Origin: a virus
Virus record (IMG/VR): IMGVR_UViG_3300025762_000005
Reading direction: 5' to 3' (one strand)
Length of the DNA: 45,754 nucleotides
Positions 8,300-42,243 of this stretch are shown here, in pieces. The notes under the pieces were generated by a model. The model saw only the letters and a program-made list of their open reading frames with translations, did no database searches and was not told the DNA's origin. Numbering within the stretch: position 1 is the first letter of the stretch; each line of letters begins with the position of its first letter. The translations under genes were made by a program, and so were the position numbers.

Positions 8300-9079
8300 A
8301 TGCAATTACCAGACGGCTTACATTTAACAATGAAGGATCTTCACGATAACGACTGGTTAGGCGTTATCTCGAACAATATTGACCCGACTTTTTCTGGTAG
8401 GTGCCAAGTTCGTGTTTATAGGTTAATGGATCACTTAAGTTCCAAAGATCTTCCTTGGGCAGTCCCAATTAATTCAACTGTTTTTGCTAGTGATGGAGCT
8501 GGATCTATTTCTATTCCTAAAATTGGACAAATAGTTCGTGTTCAGTTTAATAATGGTGATATTTATTCCCCTGAATATACTACTATTCAAAATATTGATA
8601 CCCAATTAATTGAAAGGATTAAAGATGACTATGATGGAACTCATGTATTACTCTACGATCCCGATGAAGAATTAACTATCATATATCAAAGAAATAGTGG
8701 AATGCAAATGTATTATCGCGGAAGTTTTATTCAAATTTCGCCTGATAGTATGATTACAATTGAACATGCAAATCAAGAATCTTTAATACAGTTAGATGGG
8801 GATAAGCTTAATATCGTTACTAAAAATGAAGTTAATGTTTCTGCTGCAGCTAAAGTTAGTATAAATGCTGACGAAGTTGTAGCAAGTGGCAATCAGGCAA
8901 CCAAGTTAGGTCCAGGTCCTTATTATCATGCTGTTTTAGGAGAAGTTTTATTTCCATTATTACAAACTATGGCTACTGCTTTGGATGCAAAAATGCCTGC
9001 AACTCCAGGGGTAAATACAGGATTGGTTCAGCAAGCTAAACAAGCAGCTATTTCAAATAATGTTTTAATCTCAAAATGA
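8300..9079 (+). CDS. Baseplate central spike, T4 gp5-like N-terminal OB-fold (no lysozyme domain)
   Basis: WLGVISNNIDPTFSGRCQVRVY...DLPWAVP matches the gp5/VgrG OB-fold motif, followed by beta-strand-rich repeats. Confidence 0.8.
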   Translation: MQLPDGLHLTMKDLHDNDWLGVISNNIDPTFSGRCQVRVYRLMDHLSSKDLPWAVPINSTVFASDGAGSISIPKIGQIVRVQFNNGDIYSPEYTTIQNIDTQLIERIKDDYDGTHVLLYDPDEELTIIYQRNSGMQMYYRGSFIQISPDSMITIEHANQESLIQLDGDKLNIVTKNEVNVSAAAKVSINADEVVASGNQATKLGPGPYYHAVLGEVLFPLLQTMATALDAKMPATPGVNTGLVQQAKQAAISNNVLISK

Positions 9080-11655
9080 TAATTAAAGAATACATAGAAT
9101 TTGAAAGAGGGCAAAATCCAAAAAAGAGTCTTCGTATTGGGGTTCATCATTTAATTCCTCAAATAATTGAGAAATTCGAGGAATCCCCATTTGAACTTAC
9201 TCGAAGAGGGGAAGTTTTAGATCTTGAACAGAAGTATGAAGTGTCCCCAGAAAATTTTCATAATCCAGCAGGGCATCCAAAATATGATTGGGAATTTGTG
9301 TATATCATGGAAGATTTTGAAGTTTCCATTCTTTATATGATCGATTTGAACAATGGCGAAATTTTAAGAAAAATGAAAGTTTCAAATCCTCGTATCGATG
9401 CAGAATATATTGATAATGAGAATTGGAAAATTACTTCTTTAAACCCCGATAAGATTTATGAGGAAATAGATCAAGATTATGCTTTAATTGATATTGCCGA
9501 TGCTGCAGAATATTTATGGGATATGTATCAAAAGCAAATAGAAGAAGAAGAATTTGAGGATGAAGAGATTGATGAAAGCTTAGATTTTGAAAGAGGAAAA
9601 ACACCAGAGCAAATTAAAAGAGATTTAAGAGGACATTTTCGTCCTGGCGAAATTTTGCTCCGCCCCGATAATGGATACACTCCTCATCAAACAATTATGG
9701 TATTTAAAAGAATAACTCCGCCGGATTATGCTGGAGAACAATATTATGAAGTAGCTACTTTAGGATATATCAATACTAAAGGGGAAGTAAAAACTTACGG
9801 GTCATCTCGCTTTGCAATGGATGATTATAATAAAGGGAATATGGTTTCTATTGACACCAAAACAAGATTCCCAAATAAAGAAGAGGAGCTGCTTATAAAA
9901 AGATTCTTAAATAAAAGCAAAATTTGGAAAATAAAAGAAGCTATTGGAATTTATCCTATTCTCAATGGTAAATCTTTATCCCTAACAGAATCCATCGATT
10001 TTGTCCGCAGTCAAGAAAATCCGCTGGATTCTTTAGAGATAGGACGCGTTTTGGAAAGAATAAAAGAGCAAGTTATGGAAATAGGTCCTGATATAGCTCA
10101 AAAAACTTCTCTAGGATGGTTAGTTACTCAAGTAAAATTTGTTGAAGGAATTCCAGAGGGTCAAGTTATCTGGAATTCTAAATCTTTAAAGGATCTTACC
10201 GAATCCGGATGGAAAAAACTTTTCAGAGAAATGAAAGAAATTAAATCAAAAATGTTTCCAAATATGAAGGAAGGATTAGAATTTAATAGGGGGATGGACC
10301 CAAGGGATTCTATGGAAATAGGAAGGATCGAGGAAAGAAGAGAGGCTTTAATAGATTGGATTATAGAGCAAGATCCTATAAAATGGACGGGAAGCTCTGT
10401 ATTAGCTCCTTTTATTACTCGAAGACATCCTCATCCATGGGGTTGGGATATGAAAAAATTCGAGGATGCTTCCCTTATGGAATTAAATCATATAAAGGAA
10501 TACATTGAAAAATGGGAAGCCGTTGATAAGAAATATAATGTCTTTGATGGGCCAGCCTCAAAAGTTCATGAAAGATTAAATTTTGAAAGGGGAATGGATC
10601 CTAAACAATCTATGGATATTGGAATAAATGCTAGGATTAATAAAATTACAAGTAGTGATCTGGAATTCCTTAAAATCTATACAAATGATGGAGATGGAAA
10701 AGGACATGCCAATCCGAGATTTTTTGAAGATGTTTATGGGGATTCTCTAAGCTTTAATGAATATTTAGAAAGAGCAAAACGAACTTATAATTTACTTGAA
10801 CCTTTTGAATATCTTTTTGGGGATCATTTTCCATCGGATATGAAAAAGGAAATGAGAGAATATGTGAAAAGTTACTTAAAAAATCCTAAATATAATTACG
10901 CTTATAATTGTGATATTATGGGGGACGGTGATGTTGATGTGTTCTTTTCGGAAATAAAATTACCTTCTGCAGAGCTTCTTGGAAAAAAACCTGGGTTAAA
11001 AGAATCTGTTAATTTTGAAAGAGGCATTGATCCTAAGAAATCTATGCAAATAGGCGTAAAAGCCAAAGTAAAAGAAGGAATGAATTGTTTATTACAGAGT
11101 TCCCGAAATTTTTCTTCAAGAATTTCTACAATTAATTTAGCGGGTAATAGAAATGATCTTTGGCTAGAAATTTCTGATTATGGAACTCCTAATTTTGAGG
11201 ATTTTATTGAGAGCTGTTTATCCCCGGAATATTTTGAACGGATTTATATAAAGGCAAAACCTAGAAAATATAAATCAACATCTCAAAATAAATGGGTTCT
11301 AGTTATAAAAACACAATATAAATCGGCATTTAGAGCATGTTTTGATAATCAAGGGTATATTATTGAATCTGCCAATTTTGAAAGAGGATTGGATAAGGAA
11401 AAATTAAGAATTGGAAGTATTCGTCCTATTGAAAAGTTAAAAAAAGATTATCATAATATTCAGGAGTTAGTTCAAACAGGTAAATATTTGGAATTTCAAA
11501 TTCCCTTTAGTAAAGAAGCTTTAGAAGCTATTCCAAATACTAATTATTTTGGATGGGGGAATATTCAAAATAATTTTAAAAATATGAGTAGGGAAGAATT
11601 ATTTCCCTTTGAATTAATTGTTCGTAAATATACTAAATTAATGGGTCTTGAATGA
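9076..11655 (+). CDS. Seven-module FERG-tag protein, putative virion polyprotein
   Basis: 859 aa; seven copies of E-x-x-x-F-x-R-(G/S) tags (Phe codons at 9100, 9586, 10000, 10282, 10582, 11014, 11377); ATGA overlap with the gp5-like stop. Confidence 0.8.
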   Translation: MIIKEYIEFERGQNPKKSLRIGVHHLIPQIIEKFEESPFELTRRGEVLDLEQKYEVSPENFHNPAGHPKYDWEFVYIMEDFEVSILYMIDLNNGEILRKMKVSNPRIDAEYIDNENWKITSLNPDKIYEEIDQDYALIDIADAAEYLWDMYQKQIEEEEFEDEEIDESLDFERGKTPEQIKRDLRGHFRPGEILLRPDNGYTPHQTIMVFKRITPPDYAGEQYYEVATLGYINTKGEVKTYGSSRFAMDDYNKGNMVSIDTKTRFPNKEEELLIKRFLNKSKIWKIKEAIGIYPILNGKSLSLTESIDFVRSQENPLDSLEIGRVLERIKEQVMEIGPDIAQKTSLGWLVTQVKFVEGIPEGQVIWNSKSLKDLTESGWKKLFREMKEIKSKMFPNMKEGLEFNRGMDPRDSMEIGRIEERREALIDWIIEQDPIKWTGSSVLAPFITRRHPHPWGWDMKKFEDASLMELNHIKEYIEKWEAVDKKYNVFDGPASKVHERLNFERGMDPKQSMDIGINARINKITSSDLEFLKIYTNDGDGKGHANPRFFEDVYGDSLSFNEYLERAKRTYNLLEPFEYLFGDHFPSDMKKEMREYVKSYLKNPKYNYAYNCDIMGDGDVDVFFSEIKLPSAELLGKKPGLKESVNFERGIDPKKSMQIGVKAKVKEGMNCLLQSSRNFSSRISTINLAGNRNDLWLEISDYGTPNFEDFIESCLSPEYFERIYIKAKPRKYKSTSQNKWVLVIKTQYKSAFRACFDNQGYIIESANFERGLDKEKLRIGSIRPIEKLKKDYHNIQELVQTGKYLEFQIPFSKEALEAIPNTNYFGWGNIQNNFKNMSREELFPFELIVRKYTKLMGLE

Positions 11656-16662: not shown

Positions 16663-16671
16663 CCATTGGAA

Positions 16672-16686
16672 TTTTTATTATATATT
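16672..16686 (-). promoter_or_regulatory. Putative phage late promoter for the M23 gene
   Basis: aatatataataaaaa on the - strand, 9 nt before ATG 16662. Confidence 0.4.
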
Positions 16687-16693
16687 TTTAGTA

Positions 16694-16709
16694 GATAAAT
16701 ATAATAAAA
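16694..16709 (+). promoter_or_regulatory. Putative phage late promoter
   Basis: gataaatataataaaa 7 nt before ATG 16717; divergent partner of the M23 promoter. Confidence 0.45.
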
Positions 16710-16716
16710 TTGTTCC

Positions 16717-17451
16717 ATGAAACTTGTTTGCGAATCATTAGAAGAATTATACGGAATTGATATAGAAGCTCCTGAATATTCCGCTGGAGAAAAAGCTGCT
16801 ATAACAAAAGGACAGGATGTTTTAACTAAACAACAATTAGCTGCAATGTATTTAGCTGCTAAAGATGCTATGGGAAGATCCGAGGATACCCGTGGCAGGG
16901 GGGATACTGCTCTGACACGTAATGCTATAAAAATTAATAAGGAGGAAAGCACAGATTTTAAAAAATTATCTATTCCAAGATTAGGGGATGTATTAGATCT
17001 TAAACCTCGCACAGTGAGTTACACAATATCAAAATTTAGACTTTTAATGCAAGGAAATCGTGAAGGAATTCATGGGAATGATTTATATGAAAAAATAATA
17101 AACGCATTCGATGAATTTGATAAAATGGAAAAAGAGGGCCGAGCAGGGGAAGTATATGCGTTAGCCGCAGAAGCTGTAAATATGGATGCAGGAACAGAAA
17201 GATCCACAAAATATGAGGAAGAATTAGCAGGCCAATACAAAAAAACAAAAGAAAGAATAGAAAGAAGAAACAGGAAAATAATGCAAGATACCTATGATTT
17301 ATATAATCAGCTTAGAGGGCCTTTTGGAGAAAGAGCACCAAAAAAGATTATTGATAAACTTTCATTAGAATATGGTTTGTCTCCAGAAGATATTCGCACA
17401 ATAATTAAGACAAATCTTAAAAACGATCCCAATCTAGCAAGAAAATTTTAA
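16717..17451 (+). CDS. Hypothetical protein with Glu-ending leader (MKLVCESLEE), possible internal head protein
   Basis: 244-aa ORF; the leader resembles hydrophobic-X-Glu processing sites. Confidence 0.6.
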   Translation: MKLVCESLEELYGIDIEAPEYSAGEKAAITKGQDVLTKQQLAAMYLAAKDAMGRSEDTRGRGDTALTRNAIKINKEESTDFKKLSIPRLGDVLDLKPRTVSYTISKFRLLMQGNREGIHGNDLYEKIINAFDEFDKMEKEGRAGEVYALAAEAVNMDAGTERSTKYEEELAGQYKKTKERIERRNRKIMQDTYDLYNQLRGPFGERAPKKIIDKLSLEYGLSPEDIRTIIKTNLKNDPNLARKF

Positions 17452-17457
17452 AAAAAT

Positions 17458-18113
17458 ATGAGAGCACAATTTGTTAAAATGGAAATAAATATTAAAACAA
17501 CGAAATGGTTTCGGGGATAATATATTGTGCTACTTTACCATCTAATAAAAAATATTATGGGTTTTCTTTAAATTTGGAAAACCGAAAAAGAACCCATAAA
17601 TGCCATGTAAATGCAGGAACCAAGAATAAGTTTTATAATGCTATTAGAAAATATGGATGGAATAATATTATATGGGAGATAATTGAAAAACATGATGCAG
17701 AATGTAAAAAGGATTTAAAAGAAATCCTATGCAATCGAGAAATGTATTGGATTGCAAAATCAAATACTTTTTTGGATGGATATAATATGACCGAAGGAGG
17801 GGATGGGGCGTTAGGATTATTATGGAAGGAAAATTCCAAAGAAAAATTAAGTGAAACTCAAAGGGGAAGAAAATTATCGGACAGTCATAAGAAAAATATT
17901 GGATTGGGATTGATCGGGAAATCCAATGGTATGAAAGATAAACATCATGATGAAAAAACAAAACATAACATAAGTAAAAAATTAGAAGGAATAAAAAGAT
18001 CAAAAGAAACTAAAGATAAAATGGGAAAATCTAAAATAGGAAAAAATAATCCTATGTATGGGAAAATCCCGTGGAATAAAAAAATCGATAAAAATGAGAG
18101 CAAAATTTGTTAA
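17458..18113 (+). repeat. 20-bp direct repeat flanking the GIY-YIG gene
   Basis: atgagagcacaatttgttaa (17458-17477) vs atgagagcaaaatttgttaa (18094-18113), 19/20 identical. Confidence 0.8.
17505..18113 (+). CDS. GIY-YIG homing endonuclease with NUMOD3-like repeats
   Basis: GIIY...KKYYG, RKRTH, NREMYWI, GYNMTEGG; SDSHKKNIG / DEKTKHNIS / SKETKDKMG repeats. Confidence 0.85.
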   Translation: MVSGIIYCATLPSNKKYYGFSLNLENRKRTHKCHVNAGTKNKFYNAIRKYGWNNIIWEIIEKHDAECKKDLKEILCNREMYWIAKSNTFLDGYNMTEGGDGALGLLWKENSKEKLSETQRGRKLSDSHKKNIGLGLIGKSNGMKDKHHDEKTKHNISKKLEGIKRSKETKDKMGKSKIGKNNPMYGKIPWNKKIDKNESKIC

Positions 18114-18888
18114 TGAGGGATACGGGCAGAAAGATTATGTGAGAATGGAGGATATAAAAACCAAGGCTAATGGTGATCATGATAAGGAAATTTCCTTAGC
18201 TACAACACAAGCTAAAATTATTCAAGATGCTGGTAAAGCACAGGCACGAGCCGAAGCAGCAGAAAAAGTATTTGGCGTTGGGAGCGATATTTCTCAGATA
18301 TTCCATGATCGAGCTGTCGAATTAGGTGGATCTCATGTTGTTGGAAAAGCTTCTAAACAAGTTCTTGCTCCGGTTACAGGGCCCGTAGAAAAAGGACAAA
18401 AAATCGAAAGAAAATTTAAAACACAATATCTTCTTCCATCCGAAAGATTAGGGGCGGCAGCTCCCGAAATAGGGCAAGCTAAAACAGGCGGTGGTGGTTT
18501 TATAAGAGATCGTGGAGATGTTTTTAAATCTATGGGTATTGGAAGATTTTCTACTCCTCCAGAAGTTGGGGGAAAAAGACTTTCCGATGCTTCTATCCTG
18601 CCGCTGGGGAGAGTTAATTTTGGAACCGGTGAATCCCAATATTTTAATGTCTATGATACTTATGATGGAACTGCAGAAATATGGAAAGATCATAGCGGAA
18701 ATTTCAAAGTTGTATTTACTTCAGGTGATAAACCCCTTGCAAAATTAAAAGATTATAGGGATTTTAGACATGATCAAACCTGGCAAAAAATGGGCCAATG
18801 GATTATGGTAGACTATGTTCCTGTAAAAGAAATGAAAGAACTGATCCGTGTTTATGGCGGAAGTTTACCAGGGTACACATATAAGTAA
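18094..18888 (+). CDS. Hypothetical protein with Glu-ending leader (MRAKFVNE); start reassigned from 18058
   Basis: ATG 18094 follows an A-rich stretch and gives a leader like other genes here; the track start lies inside the endonuclease. Confidence 0.65.
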   Translation: MRAKFVNEGYGQKDYVRMEDIKTKANGDHDKEISLATTQAKIIQDAGKAQARAEAAEKVFGVGSDISQIFHDRAVELGGSHVVGKASKQVLAPVTGPVEKGQKIERKFKTQYLLPSERLGAAAPEIGQAKTGGGGFIRDRGDVFKSMGIGRFSTPPEVGGKRLSDASILPLGRVNFGTGESQYFNVYDTYDGTAEIWKDHSGNFKVVFTSGDKPLAKLKDYRDFRHDQTWQKMGQWIMVDYVPVKEMKELIRVYGGSLPGYTYK

Positions 18889-18895
18889 AAATAAT

Positions 18896-19204
18896 ATGGG
18901 AATTGTTAAGGAGTATATTGATTTTGAAAGAGGACAGGATCCTAAGAAATCTATGAGAATCGGAAAAGCTTCAAGATCTTTTGAGGATAGTCTAGAAGCT
19001 GGGGAATATGTTAGAGATAACTTATTTGAAATCACAGGGTTTGAAGAAATTATTACAGATCCCGAAAATGAAGAACAAATAATTCCCGAATTAGCAGATA
19101 AGCTATATAAATGGTATAAGGAAAATGAATATCGTATCAAAGATAAAAATGAAGAAGATTTTTGGGAAGCATTTATTGATTGGGAAAATTTAAGATATAG
19201 ATGA
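18896..19204 (+). CDS. FERG-tag family protein; start reassigned from 18848
   Basis: MGIVKEYIDFERGQDPKKSMRIG begins 7 nt after the upstream stop. Confidence 0.75.
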   Translation: MGIVKEYIDFERGQDPKKSMRIGKASRSFEDSLEAGEYVRDNLFEITGFEEIITDPENEEQIIPELADKLYKWYKENEYRIKDKNEEDFWEAFIDWENLRYR

Positions 19205-25583: not shown

Positions 25584-25880
25584 TTAATTAATATTGGTAT
25601 CCTCTTTTCCATGAGCAATACTCATAGTTTTCTTAATATATTTAACCTGTTCCAAAATAAATGTCAATATAGCTTCAATTTGAGCAAATAGGGGTTTTTG
25701 AATAGGGTTTGCCCATAATTCGGAGGAGGTTGTTTTTGATAATATTTTTCCTCTATAATCATATCCCAGGTTGGTATAATTATCTGATAAGTGTTTTGCC
25801 GAAGCAAAATAAGGAGTTCTTACTTTAGACCTTTGACTCTTACTACTTACTGCATTTTGTTTTTGAGTTGCTGTTGCCAT
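25584..25880 (-). CDS. Small baseplate-associated protein
   Basis: 98 aa; its start overlaps the gp6-like stop and it lies directly upstream of the large wedge gene. Confidence 0.5.
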   Translation of the reverse strand: MATATQKQNAVSSKSQRSKVRTPYFASAKHLSDNYTNLGYDYRGKILSKTTSSELWANPIQKPLFAQIEAILTFILEQVKYIKKTMSIAHGKEDTNIN

Positions 25881-30753: not shown

Positions 30754-31040
30754 ATCCATTCTCCTTCAAGACTAGGATCCTGAGCATCCATGGCCATTTC
30801 TCTTGTTATCTGAACTCTATTATAATAAGGATCATTCATGGGGAAAATACAACAATCCCCCTGAACCAATTCTGTTTTGGAATCTCCTATTTCCTCAATA
30901 ATAGCTGTAACTCTTTTGAATTCTTCTCCAGTAAGAGGAACCCCATTCTCATCAGTGGGTGTTCCGCAATGACCACATCGATAAATTTTAATACCAATGT
31001 CCATGGCTTTTAGTGGATCCTGTCCTCTTTCAAAATTCAT
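30750..31040 (-). CDS. Leaderless FERG-tag protein with putative Zn-binding cargo
   Basis: MNFERGQDPLKAMDIG; CGHC and GDCC cysteine clusters. Confidence 0.75.
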   Translation of the reverse strand: MNFERGQDPLKAMDIGIKIYRCGHCGTPTDENGVPLTGEEFKRVTAIIEEIGDSKTELVQGDCCIFPMNDPYYNRVQITREMAMDAQDPSLEGEWI

Positions 31041-31314
31041 TGTTTCTTGGATAAATAAAATCTGAAAAATCTTCTGGCTTATCTTCTCCTGGGAATTTTA
31101 TTTTAAAATAAAGACCTTCCCTATCCATGGTAACCTCTATCTTTAATTCTAATCCTACCTCTTCATTGAAGGAACGCATAATTCTTTCTCTCGCCGATGG
31201 ATAAATCATTACAGTTCTATTTTCATCGACGAGTTTTAAAAGAACCTCGGATGCTTTTTTTCTGATCCCTATCCCCATTATTTTTTTCGGATTCTGTCCT
31301 CTTTCAAAATTCAT
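31030..31314 (-). CDS. Leaderless FERG-tag protein
   Basis: MNFERGQNPKKIMGIG; ATGA overlap with the upstream gene. Confidence 0.75.
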   Translation of the reverse strand: MNFERGQNPKKIMGIGIRKKASEVLLKLVDENRTVMIYPSARERIMRSFNEEVGLELKIEVTMDREGLYFKIKFPGEDKPEDFSDFIYPRNNEF

Positions 31315-31676
31315 CTTATGAAATATTTTTTGCCTTCATATAAAACATAAGAGCCAAATATTTCTGAAAAACGAATGGATTCTACCCCTTTAATAATTCC
31401 ATCCGTAATAATAAATTTTCCTTTATCCGTTTCATTTATAATTTTTCCCACTCCATAATATTCTTTTAAAAAAGGAGTTAATCCCTTGGAATTTATAAAT
31501 TCGAGAATCTTTTTAGCAGTTTTCTCTGCAAAAATTGTTTCTTCAAAATATCCTTCCCCATCACCATCCAAATTTACACAAGGTATAAAATGATAAACCC
31601 CAGAGATTTCAATAGGATTTTGACTTCTCCCTATTCCAATTCGATCAAATATTTCTCCTTCTCTTGTAAATTTCAT
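31311..31676 (-). CDS. Leaderless protein with degenerate FERG tag
   Basis: MKFTREGEIFDRIGIG; cargo resembles that of 31745..32104. Confidence 0.7.
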   Translation of the reverse strand: MKFTREGEIFDRIGIGRSQNPIEISGVYHFIPCVNLDGDGEGYFEETIFAEKTAKKILEFINSKGLTPFLKEYYGVGKIINETDKGKFIITDGIIKGVESIRFSEIFGSYVLYEGKKYFIR

Positions 31677-31748
31677 CGTATTTTAAAATCTATTTGAATT
31701 GATTCGATACCTTTCTTTACAGTAAACATTACCTCTTTCGAAATTCAT
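31673..31748 (-). pseudogene. Internally deleted FERG-tag gene remnant
   Basis: ATG 31748 gives MNFERGNVYCKERYRINSNRF* (stop 31683-31685); a shifted frame gives MFTVKKGIESIQIDFKIR*, whose TGA overlaps the next ATG. Confidence 0.6.
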
Positions 31749-32104
31749 TTTGGTATTTTAAATGTAAATTCCTGTGGCTTAATATCATCACTCCAAATCT
31801 GAGCCATTATTCTAGGATAATAAATGTATTTTAAATATTTCCCTTTATATTGAGAAAGATCTTCAACCATTTCTTGTCCTTTGATAACAACTTTAAAAAG
31901 ATCCGAGCTAAGTTCCCCATCCTCTATCATTTGTAGCATATCTATAACTTCTTTTGGGTCTTCGATAAATTGTGTTCGCTGATGTGTTCGCCAAATATAA
32001 TCGTCGAACCCACTTATCTTAATAAGTGATTCAATGTACAAGGCTTTTGATATTTCCCCTATATTTAGGGATTTCTTAGGATCCAATCTTCTTTCAAAGT
32101 CCAT
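31745..32104 (-). CDS. Leaderless FERG-tag protein; start reassigned from 32182
   Basis: MDFERRLDPKKSLNIG at 32104. Confidence 0.75.
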   Translation of the reverse strand: MDFERRLDPKKSLNIGEISKALYIESLIKISGFDDYIWRTHQRTQFIEDPKEVIDMLQMIEDGELSSDLFKVVIKGQEMVEDLSQYKGKYLKYIYYPRIMAQIWSDDIKPQEFTFKIPK

Positions 32105-32594
32105 GATACTTATTATAATAATCCAAAAGTAATTGTTTAACTTCTGGATTTGGTCGATTTTCATGCATATATCTCGAAGCAAGATTCACATAAGCCCCGA
32201 AATTTGTAGCTCGCATAGAACTTTTTGTATCCCCTCGTTCTACATATTGCCATTTTATTTCCGAAGTCCCTTGATCTAAATTAAAAGCTTCTTTCGGGAA
32301 TAAATTAGGAATAGTTAAAAGAGCTTTTACAGCTGCTACATTACCCTCTGATACAGAATCCCATAAAAAATCTGGATCCGAGAAATCAATTTTTTCTCCA
32401 TTAACCCATTTTTTCCCATTTAAACTAACAAGATAGGGGAAAACAATATCCTTTTTTCTTCTCAAAGCCCATGTCCAGACTTCAAAAATATCATCATAGG
32501 AAAAATCCCTGGAATGACTCATCCAATTTTTAATCTTAGGACCTAATCCTATGTCTAATGCTTGTTTTGGGTCTGCTCCCCTGACAAAATTCAT
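32094..32594 (-). CDS. Leaderless FERG-tag protein with an ankyrin-like repeat
   Basis: MNFVRGADPKQALDIG; FLWDSVSEGNVAAVKALL. Confidence 0.75.
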   Translation of the reverse strand: MNFVRGADPKQALDIGLGPKIKNWMSHSRDFSYDDIFEVWTWALRRKKDIVFPYLVSLNGKKWVNGEKIDFSDPDFLWDSVSEGNVAAVKALLTIPNLFPKEAFNLDQGTSEIKWQYVERGDTKSSMRATNFGAYVNLASRYMHENRPNPEVKQLLLDYYNKYHGL

Positions 32595-32890
32595 AATACT
32601 CCGTCTTTTTTAAGCATTTCCACGACATCTGGGATAGAAGCACCGCCATAATTAAACATGCCTAGATCGTAAGATATGGAATATTCCTGTCCCCTTTCAA
32701 TTAACTTTATATAACTACCATCAACTGAACTTGACCAGGTAAAAATTATTTCAGGATTATTCGGATAAGAATTAGAATTTGTTAGATTGAGTTTAACTCT
32801 TTTTGCTAACAAACCCGCCATTTGAAGAGCATATTCTTTTCGCCCTATGCTCATAGCTTCTTTGGGGTCTTTTCCTCTTTTAAATTCCAT
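32591..32890 (-). CDS. Leaderless FERG-tag protein; start reassigned from 32905
   Basis: MEFKRGKDPKEAMSIG begins 1 nt after the upstream TAA. Confidence 0.75.
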   Translation of the reverse strand: MEFKRGKDPKEAMSIGRKEYALQMAGLLAKRVKLNLTNSNSYPNNPEIIFTWSSSVDGSYIKLIERGQEYSISYDLGMFNYGGASIPDVVEMLKKDGVL

Positions 32891-32891
32891 T

Positions 32892-33206
32892 TTAGATTTT
32901 ATCATTAATTTCCCAATCTCCGTTCTCGTTCATAGATGAAATAAATTCTTCCTCCCCTATACGGCACTTAATAAATTTATGAGGCTTAAAATCAAAAGGA
33001 TCATAAATTAATCTAGGATGACCAATACAAATAGCAACTATTGGTTCCCCCTTTCTCTGCTTTTCCTGAAGAGGATAAAATTCTGGACAAGATTTTCTCA
33101 ATAGAAATTTAACTATGAAAGATCTTCCTTCTTCAGGTATACGACCTTTGTGATTTAGGCCAATATCTAAAGATTGTTTGGGATCAATTCCTCTTTCGAA
33201 GTTCAT
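32892..33206 (-). CDS. Leaderless FERG-tag protein, first gene of the array
   Basis: MNFERGIDPKQSLDIG. Confidence 0.75.
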   Translation of the reverse strand: MNFERGIDPKQSLDIGLNHKGRIPEEGRSFIVKFLLRKSCPEFYPLQEKQRKGEPIVAICIGHPRLIYDPFDFKPHKFIKCRIGEEEFISSMNENGDWEINDKI

Positions 33207-33256: not shown

Positions 33257-33850
33257 TTAACGATTTTTTTGATTGGCGGACTCGCTTGTTAAAGAAGCCA
33301 TTTGCCATTTCCTTTGGTCAAGATATTTTGGATTTCTTGAGCCATATCCATAAGGAACATTTTTAGTTTTTAATAGAGGGGATTTTATATGTTCTTTTCC
33401 CATTTCAGATTCAGGTCTTTCTTCGCTTCCTTTATATTTGATAACAGGAATTAGTCTGGATTGATAATTATCCTCCTGTCTCCATGAATTTTTATCAAGA
33501 ACCTCTACTTTCCAAGTTAATAGATCTTCTCCTAATTTGTCAGAAAGAAGATCTATAGTTTCGAAAAAAGTTTCTTTATCTGGATATTTCCAAAAACTTA
33601 TTAATTTTTTATCGGTCCATAATCTTCCTGATAATGTATTTCTGGTTCCTTCAGGATGAGTTTCCCCAGCTGGACCAATATGAAAAACCCCATCATCATA
33701 CCAAAAAGCATGGGCATCTTCATCGCTAAAATGAGGGGATTTAAAAATATCATTTTCCAAAGGCTCCCCATACTTATTATAAGTAAGATGAGGCATGGAA
33801 ATTTCATCAGGACTTTCAAATATTTTTAACGATTCTTTAACTATTTTCAT
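33257..33850 (-). CDS. Hypothetical protein with Glu-ending leader but no FERG tag
   Basis: MKIVKESLKIFESPD...SGRLW...ISFWKYP. Confidence 0.7.
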   Translation of the reverse strand: MKIVKESLKIFESPDEISMPHLTYNKYGEPLENDIFKSPHFSDEDAHAFWYDDGVFHIGPAGETHPEGTRNTLSGRLWTDKKLISFWKYPDKETFFETIDLLSDKLGEDLLTWKVEVLDKNSWRQEDNYQSRLIPVIKYKGSEERPESEMGKEHIKSPLLKTKNVPYGYGSRNPKYLDQRKWQMASLTSESANQKNR

Positions 33851-35103
33851 ATCTCGTCTAATCTATTTGAAAGGGAATCGTTGAAAACTTCAGCAGTTAT
33901 ATCCCCATTATAACTATATTGTGGCGGGTAATATTTGATTTTATAATCGCTATCATTTAATGATAAGCACCCGAATAATTTTTCTACTCCTTCTAAAGAA
34001 ATTGGCGCATAAAAATGGGAATAATTATTTGGTTTTTCCACCCATTTTATTTCTTCATCATTAATATCAAAATGCTTTTTAATAGCATTTTTCAAATCTT
34101 TAAAAGCTTCATCCTGATCTGCCATTTCTTGGGAATCTGTCCAAGCAAATCTAATAGCATCATGAAGATCTTCATACTCATCATTTGATTCTATTTCATC
34201 AAATAGTTCTTCAAGATTATTTGCTGTTTCTGGATCCCCGCCTCTTTCGATAAATTTTTCTTTAAGATCGTCTAAAGCAGGTATTTTTCCTTTTGCCAAA
34301 AGCCTTTTAAGAAACCAAGTCATTTCAGTAATATCGCCGAAATTAACGCTATCATATTCAAAGTACTCTTCAACATTTTCCCCCGATAAAACAGCTTCAA
34401 CGAAATCTTTACTTAAATAATCCTGAGAATAAATATCGTTATCAAATAAATCTGAGAAACTTTGCCATCCATCAAATGAAAGAAAGTATTTCCCATTTTT
34501 AAATTCATATTGAATTTCATCACTAGGAAGCTTAACATAAGGAATCCATTGAATACCCCATTTCTTTAATTCATAAAAGTCATTTTCATCAAGACTATTA
34601 TTATATTCTGGATTTTTAATCAGAAACTCAATCCATTGTTTCCTTGTTTCGTGATCAAGTTCGGCATCTTCTTCTGTAAGTAAATAGGAGATCCACATGG
34701 CAGGACTATCACTAGTTCTTTCTCTTAAAAAATTAGATATTTTTTGTTCCAAACCAACATTCATTGCTTTCTTTGGGTCTAATCCTCTTTCGAAATTCTG
34801 AGCCTCCGACATGCTTCTGAAAGTATCCTCTCCAAAACCAAGAAAAAGCTTATCTAAAAGTTCTTTTGATCCTAAATATTCCTTATGGTCAACTAAAAAT
34901 AAAAGCCATGATTCTTTTGTCTTATCATCAAGATTTTTATCCTCTTGTATTTCCCACATCCAACCAGTCGGAGAGGACCAAGATGAATCGCCTTCAGACA
35001 TTTTTTTTCGAGCATAATTTATAATTCTTGGGAAAATTCCAATATCGATGGCTTGTTTAGGATCTAAACCACGTTCAAAATTTATGGATTCTTTTACTAT
35101 CAT
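33847..35103 (-). CDS. Two-module FERG-tag protein
   Basis: MIVKESINFERGLDPKQAIDIG and internal MSEAQNFERGLDPKKAMNVG. Confidence 0.8.
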   Translation of the reverse strand: MIVKESINFERGLDPKQAIDIGIFPRIINYARKKMSEGDSSWSSPTGWMWEIQEDKNLDDKTKESWLLFLVDHKEYLGSKELLDKLFLGFGEDTFRSMSEAQNFERGLDPKKAMNVGLEQKISNFLRERTSDSPAMWISYLLTEEDAELDHETRKQWIEFLIKNPEYNNSLDENDFYELKKWGIQWIPYVKLPSDEIQYEFKNGKYFLSFDGWQSFSDLFDNDIYSQDYLSKDFVEAVLSGENVEEYFEYDSVNFGDITEMTWFLKRLLAKGKIPALDDLKEKFIERGGDPETANNLEELFDEIESNDEYEDLHDAIRFAWTDSQEMADQDEAFKDLKNAIKKHFDINDEEIKWVEKPNNYSHFYAPISLEGVEKLFGCLSLNDSDYKIKYYPPQYSYNGDITAEVFNDSLSNRLDEI

Positions 35104-35552: not shown

Positions 35553-35553
35553 T

Positions 35554-37089
35554 TTAGAATATATCTTTATATTTTTCAATAAATCTATCTACGCCCTTCT
35601 GATATTTGTCTCTTCCCTCAACTTCTCCAAGTTCATCGTGGATATAAGGATGAAGGTCAATCATCATCTTAATAGCTCTGGTTGCAAGAGAACCATTGTC
35701 AAGACGGATAAGATAGGTTACAAAATTATCAAATTCTTCAGGAGTAATATCTCTTCCCCTGGTTGATGTACAAACGAGAGATAGAAGAGCGTTAGCTTCT
35801 GACTGATCATATCCGGATCCAGCTTTCTTAGGCATACGAGCTTTTTCAGGATGGGCAAGAACCTCTTTAATATCTTCTTTTTTGAAGGATTCAAGAAGTC
35901 TTAGGAATGTTTGGAACTCTGTTGCAATATCCATACCAACGTCTGAACCAACTACGTTTGTTATATCCTGAATAGAAGGCTTATAACCTTCATCAGCAGC
36001 ATCCTGCATTAGAAGAGCAATATTCTTAGAAGCTGCTTCCCATGAACGAGGGCTAGCAAAGATGCTCTTTTCTGGATCATCGTCAAGAGTATAGAAATAT
36101 TCTTGGTTAAATTCTAGGAAGTCAAGTATTCTTTGGTCAACTTTATTCTGTGCCCATTCTTTCCAACCAGCAAAATCAGGAATATAGTTAACCTGCGAGA
36201 ATCTGTTTCCGAGAGCTGTTGAGAAGTTCTGAACACCTTCAGGGTCATCTCCTGCTCTGTTGGATGCTGAAACAATCGTCCATTTAGAACCTAGAACTGC
36301 GTCCCCAATAATTCTTTCATCAATAAGTTTTAAGCAAGTATTCTGAACAGAACCGGATGCACGTGAAAGTTCATCCAAGAATAAAATACCTCCTTCACCC
36401 ATATTAGCTATGCCATCTCTTCTTTTATCTTCTTCTGCATCGCCGCTCTTAATATAAACAGGAAGCCAAGATTTAGGAATATCCCTAGCTTTTAATTCAT
36501 CATCAACTTTATAAGTTGCTGGAAGTGACCAGTCATCTGGGGCCATTTTAGAAGTTTGGACATCGATCAATCTTCCTTTTGTATTCTGTGCAAGAACTGC
36601 TTTAACAATTGCGGTTTTTCCAATACCAGGAGCTCCCCAAATCATAAGAGGTTTCCCCTGTGGGTTCTTTAAAACCATACGAATTCTTCTATATAATTCT
36701 TTCTTTCCTACATTAGGAACGTTTTTATCAGGGTGTTCAAGTTTTATTCTAGCTTCATTAATAGTTCCCTCTTTAAGATCCGGTCCTCTTTTCTGAATAA
36801 CTTTTTCAGCGGTAAGGGATTTTAGTTCAGGGCTTAATTCAACATCACCCTGGGAAGCTACATAAGAAATAGATTTTGGTAAAGCACCATCCTTATCTAA
36901 TATCCCAATATTAACAGGAGCCATAGCTTCTGTAACAGGTTGCCCCTGGAAAATGAAGAAAAAAAGCTTTCCAACTTTCTGGAAGAATTTTTTAATAGCT
37001 TGTCCTATTTTGCTGAAGATCGCTTCATTTAGTTCTCCTCTAGCAATCTGAAAATCCTGGAGAGATTCAAATACTAATTGTTTTTTCAT
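35554..37089 (-). CDS. MoxR-type AAA+ ATPase
   Basis: Walker A GAPGIGKT, Walker B ILFLDEL, SASNR, ALGNRF, SPRSWE. Confidence 0.9.
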   Translation of the reverse strand: MKKQLVFESLQDFQIARGELNEAIFSKIGQAIKKFFQKVGKLFFFIFQGQPVTEAMAPVNIGILDKDGALPKSISYVASQGDVELSPELKSLTAEKVIQKRGPDLKEGTINEARIKLEHPDKNVPNVGKKELYRRIRMVLKNPQGKPLMIWGAPGIGKTAIVKAVLAQNTKGRLIDVQTSKMAPDDWSLPATYKVDDELKARDIPKSWLPVYIKSGDAEEDKRRDGIANMGEGGILFLDELSRASGSVQNTCLKLIDERIIGDAVLGSKWTIVSASNRAGDDPEGVQNFSTALGNRFSQVNYIPDFAGWKEWAQNKVDQRILDFLEFNQEYFYTLDDDPEKSIFASPRSWEAASKNIALLMQDAADEGYKPSIQDITNVVGSDVGMDIATEFQTFLRLLESFKKEDIKEVLAHPEKARMPKKAGSGYDQSEANALLSLVCTSTRGRDITPEEFDNFVTYLIRLDNGSLATRAIKMMIDLHPYIHDELGEVEGRDKYQKGVDRFIEKYKDIF

Positions 37090-37107
37090 TGCAGTTCTAG
37101 TTTTATT

Positions 37108-38742
37108 TTATATTTTATTTATCTTAGCTTTTATCTTATCAATTTCTTTATCCGATAATTCCTCGTGGATCTTTGGTTTTGACAAAATAATTTCAATCAT
37201 CTTTAACCAATTCTCCTTTGCCTTTTCTGAAGTTCCTACCTTACTTATCTTAGAAACAAGCATTTGAAGTGTTTTCTTTACCTTTACTCTTGGGTCTTTT
37301 AAAAGCTCCTCAACAACAGCAAAAGCTTGATTAGCAGCAGCTTCATAAATTATATAATTATCTTCATAGACAATATTATAATTTTTATCCAAAGATTCTT
37401 TTGCATCGGCAGGATTAACCCTGGGATCTTCCATTAATTTTTTTACGGCATCAACATTATTATTTTTTGCTGCTTGATATAATGCTTCATTATGATTATC
37501 AGCTGGATTTACTCTTTCATCTTTTAATAGTAATTCAATCACATCTGGATTACCTCCCATAGCAGCTGATGCAATTATAGAATTTTTTCTAAAAGCTGGG
37601 TTTGCAGCAGGATCCGAAAGGAGGAGTCTAACAATATCTACATTTCCCTTCATAGCAGCTCTTGTTAAAATCCCATTTTTATCTTCCATTTTTAAAGGAA
37701 AATTCTTTAATGATGGATATTTAGCTATTTCATTATTAACTTCTTCAATAAAATCCCCAAGAAGCTTCTCCCTTCCTATACCTATATTAGCTTTAGCATC
37801 CCCACCTCTGGTAAATCCTAAAGATTCCCTCACAGGATTATTTTCCATCATTTTTCTAAGTCTTTTCTGAGAAAGCTCCTTCATATAGGGAACTTCTTTT
37901 TTAACTCTAGGATCTGATAATAAAAGACTTACCATTTCCCTATCCCCATTATTTAAAGCCGCTGCTAGAGCCCAATTATCCCTGCTTGTGGGATCTACTC
38001 TTTTATCTTTTAAGAGAAGTTTAACAATATCTACATATCCATTTTTTGCAGCTCTTCTAATGCAATAATTGGTTTCATCATTTCCATATCTTTTGCCATC
38101 TCGGGTTTGAGCTGCTGGATCTACAATAGGACTAGATAAAAGAGCTCTGGCAACCTCTAGATCCCCTCTTTCACAAGCTTTTTGAATAGGGCCATCAGAA
38201 TCTATATTTAAATTTGTCGCCCCATTTTCAATAGCCCATAATAAAAGTTCTGGAGTCCAATGAGAATACGATAAAGAAAATGCTTTATTTGGTCCTAATT
38301 TTTTGATGCCATCTATAGTTCTCTGGGGTTCATATCTCATAAAGTCATTGAAAGTATATTCAGTTATCCATGATTTAGGAGCATTCCAAAGATCATCTTC
38401 TCTTCCTAATAAATAAAATGCTTGAACCCAACCAGAAGCATAATTTTCCAAATTATTTGGATTAAAGGTTTTTATTTTGTCCAATAATTCATTAAAAACT
38501 TGCATCATAGCAGGTCGGCTCTGATTCATTGAATAAAAACTAGCAATTTTTCGAGTATCAATATGATAGATCTTTTTTTCCGTAAAATCATTAAGTGATT
38601 TTGGTGCCTCTGATTTTAAAGCCCAAGATTGATCATGGGCTAAATCTTCCATCATCTCTGGAAAAAGCGCAGCTTTTCCAATAGCCATTCCTTCTTTAGG
38701 GTCTATATTTCTAGTAAAAGATATGGCTTCCTTAACAATCAT
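37108..38742 (-). CDS. Two-module FERG-tag ankyrin-repeat protein
   Basis: MIVKEAISFTRNIDPKEGMAIG and internal VRESLGFTRGGDAKANIGIG; ankyrin repeats such as AAKNGYVDIVKLLL and AAMKGNVDIVRLLL. Confidence 0.85.
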   Translation of the reverse strand: MIVKEAISFTRNIDPKEGMAIGKAALFPEMMEDLAHDQSWALKSEAPKSLNDFTEKKIYHIDTRKIASFYSMNQSRPAMMQVFNELLDKIKTFNPNNLENYASGWVQAFYLLGREDDLWNAPKSWITEYTFNDFMRYEPQRTIDGIKKLGPNKAFSLSYSHWTPELLLWAIENGATNLNIDSDGPIQKACERGDLEVARALLSSPIVDPAAQTRDGKRYGNDETNYCIRRAAKNGYVDIVKLLLKDKRVDPTSRDNWALAAALNNGDREMVSLLLSDPRVKKEVPYMKELSQKRLRKMMENNPVRESLGFTRGGDAKANIGIGREKLLGDFIEEVNNEIAKYPSLKNFPLKMEDKNGILTRAAMKGNVDIVRLLLSDPAANPAFRKNSIIASAAMGGNPDVIELLLKDERVNPADNHNEALYQAAKNNNVDAVKKLMEDPRVNPADAKESLDKNYNIVYEDNYIIYEAAANQAFAVVEELLKDPRVKVKKTLQMLVSKISKVGTSEKAKENWLKMIEIILSKPKIHEELSDKEIDKIKAKINKI

Positions 38743-40517
38743 TAACTAATATTAATTTGTTTGCCAAATGGCTGCTGCCATTGAGGATTATCATAAACCA
38801 TCCAAATAAATTTGTGAGCATAAGGTGGTTTCTTTGGATTGGGAGCTCCCCCGTCAGTAAAGAATACGCAAAGGGAAACTCTATCTTTTAGTTTATCATG
38901 TACCCAATCAAGAGCTTTTTGGAAGCTAGTTCCGCCGCCACCCCTAACATTTTTAGGAATATATGGTTTTCCCATTTTCTTAATGGTCTGAACACTTCCC
39001 TCATCAACACCATCATCAAAGAAAGCTACGGTAATTTTATTAACTCTTTTTGAGAAAATAATTTGGTTAATTTCATTTAATATTTTTTCTAGAGCTTCCC
39101 TACCCATAGAACCAGAAACGTCGACTAATACTACAATATGTTCCATAGCATCCATCTTATGTTTCTCTCCATAACGTAGAAATTCCCCGCTTAAGTGTTT
39201 TTTATTTCCAATTTTCTGATATGTTTCAGGGGATAGAGCAGTTGCAACATATCTTCTGAACATATTTTGCCAGTTAACATCTCCTCTATGTAATCTTGAA
39301 AGTGCTGTAACAAGAGCACCTCCTTTTCCAGTACCTCTTCCCTTTGATCCTTTTAAAGCACGATCGAGCATTTTTGCCCCCTCAACACGCCATTTATCTG
39401 TCGGACTTTCGTCTGGCCCCATTTCCCCTTCTCCATATCCGCTTGCTTTAGCAATTTTCTTTCCCATTTCTGGAGTAATAATACCTCCTGTTCCAGCAGG
39501 GTCATATTCCTCAGCTTGATCGAAACTTTCTTCGTATCCATCACTTCCGGATCCACCAACACCTTTATCTTCGCCTTCTCCTTCTTCTCCTTGTCCCTGT
39601 CCTTGGCCTTGCCCTTGCCCCTGACCTGAATCAAGAGGAATTAATTCATCTTTTTTATAACTTTCAAAAAGATAGGTGACTAAAAGACTTTCATTAAGAG
39701 GACCTACCTCATAAGTTCCGTCGGGATTTACAGCCGTAACAACTCCTTTTTCTCCTGTAGCTTTAATCTTAACTTTACTACCTACTTGGAGAGGTTGTGG
39801 TTGGCTTTTTCCGCCACCCTGCTGACCTTGACCCTGACCCTGTCCTTGACCGCCACCTTGCTGATCCTGTCCCTGATTTTGTCCTTGATTATTCTTTTTA
39901 AAAGGATTAGGTGGCATTTTTGGAATAGTTTTCTTTAGATCATCATAAATCTGTTCAACGGGAACATTTAAATATTTTTCATCATAAAGACCCCCAATTT
40001 TTTCTACAAACTCTTTATTGAAGTCGCTTAAAGTATCTACTATAATAGTATTAATTTCATAGTCTCCAGCAATATTAAATAGAGAAGCAGGTTTTCCCTC
40101 AGAAGTCATAACTGTTGCATTTCTGGATTTCATACGTTCCATGTGAAGGAGAACGCAGTGCATGATCTCATGAATAATAACAAAAATTTTCTGCTCCCAC
40201 GAAAGCTTATCAGCAAATAATGGATTTACAAATAATCTTGTTCCATCGGTTGCCATTGTAGGAACAATCCAAGTGTAGATTGGGGTAAATTTATGAACAT
40301 AAGGGGCAAATAAAGGAGATTGAGAAACAATAGCTGTTTTAGCACTTTCCATTTCATTTTTAAGATGCCTCATGTCAATTTTGGTTCCATCTTTAGCGAA
40401 AACATATCCATAATCTTCGATCTTCGCTGATTTAGGAATATCCATTCCTTCTTTAGCTTCATACAAAAAATCGTTTATTTGAGGATAAAATCTTGGATTT
40501 AATAGTTTCATATTCAT
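38742..40517 (-). CDS. HExxH putative metallopeptidase + VWA domain protein (DUF2201-like), MoxR partner
   Basis: TMATDG, IHEIMHC (HExxH), MIDAS DVSGS, GGGTSF, FFTDG; the start may be the second Met at 40511. Confidence 0.85.
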   Translation of the reverse strand: MNMKLLNPRFYPQINDFLYEAKEGMDIPKSAKIEDYGYVFAKDGTKIDMRHLKNEMESAKTAIVSQSPLFAPYVHKFTPIYTWIVPTMATDGTRLFVNPLFADKLSWEQKIFVIIHEIMHCVLLHMERMKSRNATVMTSEGKPASLFNIAGDYEINTIIVDTLSDFNKEFVEKIGGLYDEKYLNVPVEQIYDDLKKTIPKMPPNPFKKNNQGQNQGQDQQGGGQGQGQGQGQQGGGKSQPQPLQVGSKVKIKATGEKGVVTAVNPDGTYEVGPLNESLLVTYLFESYKKDELIPLDSGQGQGQGQGQGQGEEGEGEDKGVGGSGSDGYEESFDQAEEYDPAGTGGIITPEMGKKIAKASGYGEGEMGPDESPTDKWRVEGAKMLDRALKGSKGRGTGKGGALVTALSRLHRGDVNWQNMFRRYVATALSPETYQKIGNKKHLSGEFLRYGEKHKMDAMEHIVVLVDVSGSMGREALEKILNEINQIIFSKRVNKITVAFFDDGVDEGSVQTIKKMGKPYIPKNVRGGGGTSFQKALDWVHDKLKDRVSLCVFFTDGGAPNPKKPPYAHKFIWMVYDNPQWQQPFGKQINIS

Positions 40518-40525
40518 TTATTTTT

Positions 40526-41788
40526 TTAATTCCATACTGTTCCGAGGACTTTTATTTTCTTTCGGATCTCATCCTCCTTCCATTTTTTTGATCCCGGATA
40601 GCTTGAATAGATTGAAAGATCTCCTTTAACTTCTTTTGGAAACCCATCAAGTTTTGTAAAAATATTTTGAGCTACATAAAAACCTCCATATATTATCTTA
40701 AATTTAATAAAATATGGAAAATTATTTATATTGCAATCAACTAAATTTAAGTCATCTAAAACATCGATGGTTCCATCTTTATTTATCCTATATTCTACAT
40801 ACTTATCATCATTTGGATCTTCAGAAATACCACATTCTTTAAACCAATTTTTTATCTGAGCATGGTATCCTATATCTAAAGAGGATTTTGGATTAATATT
40901 TCTGTGAAATTCCATATTCTCTTTTATTGGTACATCAACTATTTCTTGTGGTTCATCACCCCAAGCAGATCCTTTTACTCTACAGACCTTTCGTATATCT
41001 TTTTGAGAAAATAACCCTGGATTATTATGGCAAACATAATTTCCATCTACATGTCTTGGCCCATCCTCTAATGTCATTAATTTATTGTTAGAGCATTTAA
41101 AATTACCTTTTAGATTTTCAGTTCCTACAACCTTTTTGGGGCACCCCCGTAAAGTTTTTAATTGGTTATCAGAAATATCAAATCCTCCGATAACAGTTCC
41201 AAATTGAATATATTCTGGAAGGACTTCTCCTATATTTCTTAATCGTATAACTAATTGAACCTCAGGAGCTGTATTTATAATAAGATCTTTCGAAATAACA
41301 GTATCCTCTAATAGATCATGTTCATTTAACCATTTTTCAATTAATGCCCTTTTACCTATATTCATGGAAACCATTGGATCCCCTCCTCTGTGAAATTCTT
41401 GAGCTTCATTCATACTTCTGGGAAGAAATTCAAATAATCCGCTCTTCAATTGTTTTGGCGTTCCTTTTATAAATCCATGTCTTTGACGAACATTATCATT
41501 TTTATTTGCCTTAAAATCTTCTAAATCCTCAAAATATTTAAACCAAATAATCCATTCCTTGGAGGAGGCATTATCAAATTCTTCCATCTGTAATATAACA
41601 CCTATTGGTAAATCAGAAACCGGGAAAGCGCCGTATGATATTTCATTATTAGTGTCCAGAGGAATATTTTTTATAACTTTTAGCAAATCTCCCTCATGAA
41701 GATTATTCCATGAAGGCATCCCAATTTTCATGGAAGACTTTGGATCTATTCCCCTTTCAAAATTAATATGTTCCTTTACAATTTTCAT
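40526..41788 (-). CDS. Three-module FERG-tag protein with two short LRR-like cargos
   Basis: MKIVKEHINFERGIDPKSSMKIG; MNEAQEFHRGGDPMVSMNIG; IKENMEFHRNINPKSSLDIG. Confidence 0.8.
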   Translation of the reverse strand: MKIVKEHINFERGIDPKSSMKIGMPSWNNLHEGDLLKVIKNIPLDTNNEISYGAFPVSDLPIGVILQMEEFDNASSKEWIIWFKYFEDLEDFKANKNDNVRQRHGFIKGTPKQLKSGLFEFLPRSMNEAQEFHRGGDPMVSMNIGKRALIEKWLNEHDLLEDTVISKDLIINTAPEVQLVIRLRNIGEVLPEYIQFGTVIGGFDISDNQLKTLRGCPKKVVGTENLKGNFKCSNNKLMTLEDGPRHVDGNYVCHNNPGLFSQKDIRKVCRVKGSAWGDEPQEIVDVPIKENMEFHRNINPKSSLDIGYHAQIKNWFKECGISEDPNDDKYVEYRINKDGTIDVLDDLNLVDCNINNFPYFIKFKIIYGGFYVAQNIFTKLDGFPKEVKGDLSIYSSYPGSKKWKEDEIRKKIKVLGTVWN

Positions 41789-42243
41789 TCGCTATCATCT
41801 ACTTGAATGTTTGGGGCAAAACAAACTTTTCTTATTTCAGCTTCGGTAAATTCTGCTTTATTTCCAAAACAATAAACACACTCACGGACCTCTTTTGGAA
41901 ACCCCTTTAAATCTGTAATTTTATTCATTTGGCAAGAAAAATATCCTTTTACTTTTTTGGGGCATCCAACCAAGGAAACTATTCCGCAATCATCAATATC
42001 AAAAGAACCTGAAGAATTAAATCTAATATAATCAGGAAATCTTCCATTTGGAAATAATTCCGGTCTTTCAACTGCAATGACATCCAAATCCGTATCTATA
42101 GTAAAATCCGAATTAAGCTTATAATTTCTTACCCCGATATGAACCTCATCAAGCCAGTCCTGAATTAATTTAGCTTTTCCGATACCTATGGCTTCTTTCG
42201 GATCTAATCCCCTTTCAAAATTGATATTTTCCCTAACTATCAT
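41785..42243 (-). CDS. FERG-tag protein with short LRR-like cargo
   Basis: MIVRENINFERGLDPKEAIGIG; IVSLVGCPKKVKGYFSCQMNKITDLKGFPKEV. Confidence 0.8.
   Translation of the reverse strand: MIVRENINFERGLDPKEAIGIGKAKLIQDWLDEVHIGVRNYKLNSDFTIDTDLDVIAVERPELFPNGRFPDYIRFNSSGSFDIDDCGIVSLVGCPKKVKGYFSCQMNKITDLKGFPKEVRECVYCFGNKAEFTEAEIRKVCFAPNIQVDDSE

Follow-up and report, generated by a model that had tools for sequence, protein, structure and literature searches.

In bacteriophage T4, the internal proteins consist of diverse cargos behind a conserved capsid targeting sequence that is cut by gp21 (PMC3012670, PMC9026906). This 10-residue sequence ends in a gp21-type site and sends the internal proteins to the prohead core (PMC9026906, PMC3012670), with gp21 cutting after Glu in L/I-X-E (PMC9026906). 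In the giant phages phiKZ, 201phi2-1, and SPN3US, inner-body or ejection proteins are cut at S/A-X-E by an S80 protease (PMC9026906). Here, we analyzed a 45,754-nucleotide stretch of viral DNA (IMG/VR record IMGVR_UViG_3300025762_000005; hereafter, the window), in which an earlier reading of the sequence (the original prediction) had recognized a candidate new system, namely a 15-residue FERG tag that heads unrelated cargos and was taken as a portable addressing or docking signal. Our analysis suggests that the unrelated tagged modules are probably proteins that are carried in the virus head, separated from one another by cleavage, and delivered to the host. The tag itself is undescribed, as had been proposed, but its fixed protease-type site points to a variant of the T4 capsid-targeting paradigm and not to a wholly new system.

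A fuzzy regular-expression search combined with a hidden Markov model (HMM) built from the copies detected 26 FERG motifs at 31-53 bits in 17 open reading frames (ORFs) on both strands (positions 9100-42219). With four degenerate copies and one truncated copy added, there are 31 copies in 19 ORFs altogether, which are the same numbers as in the original prediction. Three of the degenerate copies are found in ORF 9076-11655, which also holds four strong copies and therefore comprises seven tag units (Table 1). The fourth is the N-terminal copy of ORF 31311-31676, whereas the truncated one lies at the start of a 21-aa micro-ORF. When the window was shuffled 50 times, the best tag-HMM score was 9.6 bits, and none reached 15 bits. 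Each copy in the window coincides with the beginning of an ORF or with a boundary between modules, so the motif does always head a module, and at least 12 of the copies are internal to ORFs.

The conserved unit is, however, ~24 residues long rather than 15, because a hydrophobic(h)-x-E-[S/A]-h-N stretch precedes the Phe. The full motif reads [L/I/V]-x-E-[S/A]-h-N followed by FERGxDPKxxMxIG; the 15-residue core had been recognized correctly, but the fixed protease-type site in front of it had been missed. We numbered the positions relative to the Phe of FERG, such that Glu is at -4, the hydrophobic residue at -6, and Ser or Ala at -3. Of the internal copies in the window and in viral loci (108 in total), 106 have Glu(-4), 98 have I/V/L/M/F(-6), and 87 have Ser or Ala(-3). 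The 458 internal copies in database proteins gave similar values (Glu(-4) in 97%, L/I/V/M(-6) in 82%, and Ser(-3) in 78%), and overall a hydrophobic residue occupies -6 in ~82-86% of internal copies. Positions upstream of -7 are linker-like and show no conservation. In the seven-cassette protein, all seven tags keep h-x-E with Glu at -4, the three degenerate ones included.

The N-terminal copies fall into two classes. In one of them, Met is at -8, -9, or -11 and the h-x-E-S leader is complete; in the other, Met is at -2, where it takes the place of a hydrophobic residue, and the site is absent. Almost no copies have Met between these positions. Glu(-4) is kept in 108 of the 117 leader-bearing N-terminal copies. 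In the array of short tag genes at 30750-33206, six of the eight genes (including 31311-31676 and the micro-ORF) begin directly with Met-x-Phe and therefore lack the h-x-E leader, and another (32591-32905) has Met at -7, also without Glu. For the eighth gene (31745-32182 as listed), ATG 32104 is the likely start. Degenerate internal copies retain the h-x-E-S-h-x-F half, whereas leaderless copies retain the FERG..IG half, and therefore the two halves are under separable constraint.

The original prediction had suggested structure modeling of the tag as a check, and AlphaFold placed the tags in segments of low confidence. The model of the 152-aa protein (41785-42243), based on 27 homologues, has a mean pLDDT (predicted local distance difference test) of 88 and is confident except for residues 1-11; a helix begins at the Asp-Pro-Lys of the tag. 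For the 420-aa protein (40526-41788), three confident globular modules were obtained, and the only low-confidence segments (residues 1-22, 125-144, and 280-307) are the three tags. The modules of both models reach a pLDDT of 80-98, and the pTM (predicted template modeling score) of 0.39 for the 420-aa model implies that they have no fixed arrangement with respect to each other. Since the tags are the only low-confidence segments, they are best described as conserved flexible peptides between or before domains. In these models, a position of this kind would be appropriate for a protease site or docking motif but not for a structural part of the cargo.

Strings of independent domains, as seen in these models, might also be expected if the tags were conserved linkers that stay uncut in beads-on-a-string proteins, such as adhesion proteins or proteins of the virion surface for which the motif would serve as an anchor, and LRR (leucine-rich repeat) and other binding folds could serve adhesion. 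We consider this very improbable, given that a linker of this kind would need neither a fixed Glu(-4), nor an all-or-none N-terminal leader, nor a tag on single-module proteins, and that ankyrin-type cargos are typical of intracellular action.

The cargos behind the tags are unrelated, as originally claimed. Among the 30 modules in the window, BLAST similarity was found only within four LRR-like modules and one ankyrin pair, leaving 24 without a paralogue in the window. On a larger scale, 601 modules formed 197 BLAST clusters, of which 129 are singletons, and a Pfam search of 89 multi-tag proteins named only ankyrin, LRR, and one GNAT domain. A Foldseek search with the three-module model of ORF 40526-41788 returned weak SH3-like matches for one module, none of them at E ≤ 0.001, and an ESM Atlas search with a leaderless module gave no usable match. 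Tag-to-tag spacing in 150 database proteins ranges from 90 to 150 aa, with a mode near 115. The orthologues of ORF 40526-41788 display the architectures B-A-A, C-B-A-A, C-D-B-A-A, C-B-x-A-A, C-C-B-A-A, B-C-A-A, and C-A-A; they differ by module, the evolution of these proteins proceeding by whole tag-bounded cassettes. In addition, we observed that nearly all orthologues in the short LRR-like family represented by ORF 41785-42243 (alignment A2) end with a conserved, Asp-Asp-Ser-Asp-like acidic tail.

Cassettes that are gained, lost, and reordered exactly at the tags could also reflect a DNA-level repeat, that is, a recombination or regulatory cassette at gene starts with the peptide as a by-product. 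This explanation was rejected by codon analysis and is extremely improbable. Over the 14 core codons, pairwise nucleotide identity averages 0.65 at codon position 1, 0.81 at position 2, and 0.44 at position 3, all synonymous codons are in use for the invariant Gly, Pro, and Arg of the tag, and the ORF-internal copies do not stand at gene starts. Conservation acts on the peptide, not on the DNA.

Checked against Pfam-A, PHROGs v4, and NCBIfam 20, the tag is covered by no family, and no chain among the PDB sequences matched its profile at E ≤ 1, in keeping with the original prediction, in which it was not recognized as a named domain. Full-text literature searches for the motif or for cargo polyproteins in huge phages turned up no description of it, and a tblastn search of GenBank phages with a three-tag protein gave matches limited to its LRR-like parts. 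By contrast with these named collections, a search of 1.84 billion proteins with the tag profile yielded 1737 cluster representatives at E ≤ 0.001 (485 at E ≤ 1e-10), with a maximum of 12 copies in one protein. Ten of the matched proteins were looked up, and all ten are metagenomic and unnamed.

The window belongs to a large myovirus-type phage (~32% GC), and the closest GenBank phages are the Prevotella Lak megaphages, with 42% identity over the wedge protein. Using a degenerate DNA pattern of the tag core, we identified 71 viral-contig loci, each with a true copy, and 247 copies altogether; three larger contigs (judged 11-34% complete) carry 38, 39, and 21 copies. The same core pattern had only two matches in 596 Gb of bacterial and archaeal genomes. 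One of them, on a Dehalococcoidia chromosome, was dismissed as chance, and the second lies on a 2.9-kb fragment of a phage that was assigned to an archaeal metagenome-assembled genome (MAG). Lak-A2 and the 735-kb phage LR756501 contain no tags, in the same kind of search in which positive controls matched. The tag is confined to phage contigs, and it heads unrelated cargos across a whole clade of huge phages. It is portable in the sense originally proposed, leads each module, and is selected as a peptide. Fragments of the clade also occur in MAGs labeled Diapherotrites, Paceibacterota, Nanoarchaeia, and Nitrosopumilus (L073; P0170, P0230, P0275, and P0290), which are almost certainly binning errors; judging by their names, these contigs come from anaerobic digesters and comparable habitats.

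A head protease is encoded by a syntenic relative. The 132-kb contig G003 contains 39 tags and shares synteny with the window over its 92-131 kb stretch. Among its genes is one for a Peptidase_S77/S80 head protease (PF03420, E 4e-14; phrog_207, E 2e-40), and a 376-kb contig with tag genes also carries an S77-family protease. The G003 protease (L081:768-3302) is fused to a ~570-aa extension, which is probably a scaffold, and lies directly upstream of a Gp23-family capsid protein. This capsid protein and T4 gp23 align from residues 91 and 93 onward, and G003 has LNE/AEMGG where T4 has LTE/AEIGG at its known maturation site (the slash marks the cut, which is predicted for G003). The extension carries conserved, repeated h-N-E-S sites across the protease family (alignment A4). 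Because the capsid protein keeps the T4 maturation site and the extension contains these h-N-E-S sites, the specificity of the clade's protease is very probably T4-like, and the leader in front of the tags very probably fits this specificity, as judged from sequence. The fused protease family has >3300 members at E ≤ 1e-10. A complex prediction between the tag (first 60 residues of a G003 orthologue) and the G003 protease-scaffold scored 0.00; it was run without controls and is not evidence either way.

We propose, at about an even chance, that the tag is a composite cutting and addressing signal for head-packaged cargo that is made as single modules or as polyproteins. Its first part, [L/I/V]-x-E followed by S or A, would be the cutting site for a T4-type (S77) head maturation protease, and its second part, h-N-FERGxDPKxxMxIG, would remain at the new N-terminus of every released module. 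The FERG half would most likely address the precursor to the prohead core and/or help the protease to recognize the junction. Cargo would be produced either one module at a time or in strings of as many as 12 modules (~115 aa each). Late in infection, the strings would enter the prohead, and maturation would cut them into small compact proteins to be delivered together with the DNA. Most of the putative cargos have binding-type folds (LRR, ankyrin, and SH3-like) or are unassigned.

This proposal shares several features with the T4 internal proteins (IPI, IPII, IPIII, and Alt), which are processed by the S77 protease gp21 and likewise have a short conserved N-terminal signal before highly diverse, small compact cargos. 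A hydrophobic-x-Glu site accompanies the tag as L/I-x-E does the T4 signal, the cargos are diverse, and a relative has both an S77 protease and a Gp23-type capsid protein that keeps the T4 maturation site. Unlike in T4, where the 10-residue signal precedes the cut and is discarded, the conserved block (FERG..IG) is downstream of the Glu, so that 18 conserved residues would follow the putative cut and be kept on the cargo. The tag also differs in its internal repetition, with up to 12 copies per protein giving polyproteins; in its abundance, with tens of copies per 45-130 kb versus a handful per genome; and in having no sequence similarity to the T4 signal.

The phages of the phiKZ group resemble the present clade in being giant phages with paralogous families and, as predicted here, many head-internal proteins and post-Glu cleavage that has few other determinants (PMC9026906), but neither a shared retained tag nor a regular cassette polyprotein has been described in them, and P3 is hydrophobic here, as in T4, instead of Ser or Ala. 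The cargo-loading peptides of encapsulins are likewise short, flexible, and conserved and direct unrelated cargos into an HK97-fold shell (shell binding being only a candidate function here); however, they are usually C-terminal, one per cargo, and have no linked protease site. The effector markers of type VI secretion systems (T6SSs), such as MIX and FIX, are similarly conserved N-terminal markers on polymorphic effectors, some encoded beside a spike gene, but these are folded domains that are not repeated at module junctions, and the tag has no Pfam match to any such domain.

Several observations weigh against a packaged and cut cargo. The window itself has neither a protease nor a capsid gene, and the link is made via a relative at ~50-80% protein identity. 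The T4 targeting peptide is upstream of the cut and removed, whereas the conserved part of the tag is downstream and would be retained on every module; the FERG half may be kept for core addressing, for primed-side recognition by the protease, or for docking after delivery. The Glu could merely belong to a binding motif. Moreover, leaderless tag genes occur in separate arrays in both the window and G003, and they may be expressed at another time and never be packaged. Finally, many of the tag genes are interspersed with baseplate genes, and the translation of one is coupled to that of the hub gene.

The last of these points raises the question of tail location. In the window, the seven-cassette gene starts just before the gp5-like hub gene ends, and in G003 a four-tag gene likewise overlaps the hub gene. 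Together with the position of many tag genes among baseplate genes and the narrow module size (~115 aa), this is what would be expected if the tag directed cargo onto the spike or into the lumen of the tail or baseplate, as happens in T6SSs and contractile injection systems, with modules kept small to fit the tube. Yet the Glu site, nearly invariant as it is, is what one would expect for a protease working within proheads, and tag genes of G003 are also found far from its tail genes, at 23-32 kb and 47 kb. In T4, the gene for Alt, a packaged protein, is encoded beside baseplate genes, and therefore adjacency to such genes does not imply a tail location. We regard loading into the tail as quite improbable, and as a weaker rival than the one considered next.

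The main rival to a head-packaging signal, although unlikely, is that the FERG half is an intracellular docking motif that couples about a hundred binding modules to one host or phage machine, the Glu site serving only to free the modules and the leaderless genes providing newly made copies of these mature proteins. The tag combines conservation with predicted flexibility, as short linear motifs do; it is present on every module, including those of leaderless genes that have no cutting site, and the recognizable cargos have protein-binding folds. In addition, tag genes are interleaved with the genes of a MoxR AAA+ ATPase and a VWA protein in the window, in G003, and in L085, and the original prediction had listed this AAA+/VWA machine as a candidate partner. 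The pair is not a specific partner. Tag-less Lak-A2 has it, with the two genes side by side, and LR756501, which also has no tags, contains it too, and it is therefore not tied to the tag; its synteny with tag genes is seen only inside the tag-bearing clade. Docking is also compatible with packaging rather than an alternative to it.

An extended form of this idea, which we consider unlikely, is that FERG plugs the ~hundred binding modules per genome into one machine (e.g., an unfoldase, a protease, or the transcription apparatus), making them an injected and synthesized adaptor library against host proteins. If so, bacterial viruses would have in this library a counterpart to the adaptor families (F-box or PRANC-ankyrin) known from eukaryotic viruses.

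The tag genes and the neighboring features in the window are listed in Table 1.

Table 1. Tag genes and neighboring features in the window (F, position of the tag Phe in the protein)
Feature	Position	Strand	Details
gp5-like baseplate hub with OB domain	8300-9079	+	Phage_base_V, phrog_37871; translationally coupled to seven-cassette gene
Seven-cassette protein, 859 aa	9076-11655	+	F9, F171, F309, F403, F503, F647, F768; 4 strong, 3 degenerate (F171, F309, F768)
Single N-terminal tag, 214 aa	11652-12296	+	Variant FKRF..DPK; HMM 40.6 bits
Single N-terminal tag, ~102 aa	18896-19204	+	Likely start ATG 18896 inside listed ORF 18848-19204
Two-cassette protein, 248 aa	19201-19947	+	F10, F131
Two-cassette protein, 370 aa	20325-21437	-	F10, F270; first cargo a long LRR solenoid (LRR_4, E 8e-12)
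Baseplate wedge subunit	25880-27775		Profile match
Single-tag protein, 153 aa	27772-28233	-	Adjoins baseplate wedge gene
Array of eight short tag genes	30750-33206	-	Includes degenerate copy (31311-31676) and truncated micro-ORF (~31683-31748)
Two-tag protein, 418 aa	33847-35103	-	F9, F104; additional degenerate tag relic at 34210-34251
One divergent tag, short LRR-like cargo, ~150 aa	35100-35552	-	Likely start ATG 35552
MoxR-type AAA+ ATPase	35554-37089	-	N-terminus resembles degenerate leader
Two-cassette ankyrin protein, 544 aa	37108-38742	-	F9, F310; both cargos ankyrin repeats (Ank_2, E 2e-30)
DUF2201 protein, metallopeptidase-like with VWA domain	38742-40517	-	Pfam
Three-cassette protein, 420 aa	40526-41788	-	F10, F132, F294; one SH3-like and two short LRR-like modules
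Single cassette, 152 aa	41785-42243	-	Short LRR-like cargo, acidic C-terminus

The LRR cargo of the 370-aa protein (20701-21300, minus strand) is a long series of near-identical repeat units, and an almost identical N-terminus is found on the mis-binned contig L073. The two-cassette ankyrin gene sits between the VWA and AAA+ genes. At its N-terminus, the MoxR AAA+ protein has a Phe..Arg-Gly stretch, reminiscent of a decayed tag, as well as two sites of the form hydrophobic-x-Glu-Ser/Ala that fall within 22 residues; in G003, the orthologue shares the same N-terminal start, and the tag HMM gives no match to the N-terminus of the window protein. In Lak-A2 (L088, 1-4518), the AAA+ protein (928 aa) directly adjoins a DUF2201-like protein with no intervening gene, and the latter has a long low-complexity tail rich in Gln, Ser, Gly, and Asp when TAG is read as Gln.

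Two untagged ORFs (16717-17451, plus strand, and 33257-33850, minus strand) begin with a tag-gene-like leader (Met-Lys-h-Val-x-Glu-Ser-Leu) without a FERG block, and G003 has two similar genes. We sought the leader pattern in the first 14 residues of each G003 ORF and found it in 15 of 160 (~8 of them tagged) versus ~5 expected, so Glu leaders are not significantly enriched on untagged neighbors in that contig. Two further ORFs, 17505-18113 (plus strand) and 42615-43310 (minus strand), have N-termini typical of GIY-YIG homing endonucleases and interrupt the structural and tag gene clusters; the L085 gene at the equivalent position has a weak GIY-YIG match in Pfam.

Head-delivered proteins act first in infection, and in T4 this class has yielded anti-restriction factors. 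If the tag is indeed a cutting and addressing signal for such proteins, one short profile would be enough to reveal, by sequence alone, the packaged or delivered repertoire of an uncultured clade of ~400-kb phages, comprising >1700 protein clusters, most of them without a known fold. It would also mean that phages can produce head cargo in the form of long cassette polyproteins whose address peptide is retained, unlike the T4 signal, a design that could serve to bring foreign proteins into capsids. The small spread in module size, together with the predominance of binding-type folds, is suggestive of a large inhibitor or adaptor library that would be worth screening against bacterial defense systems.

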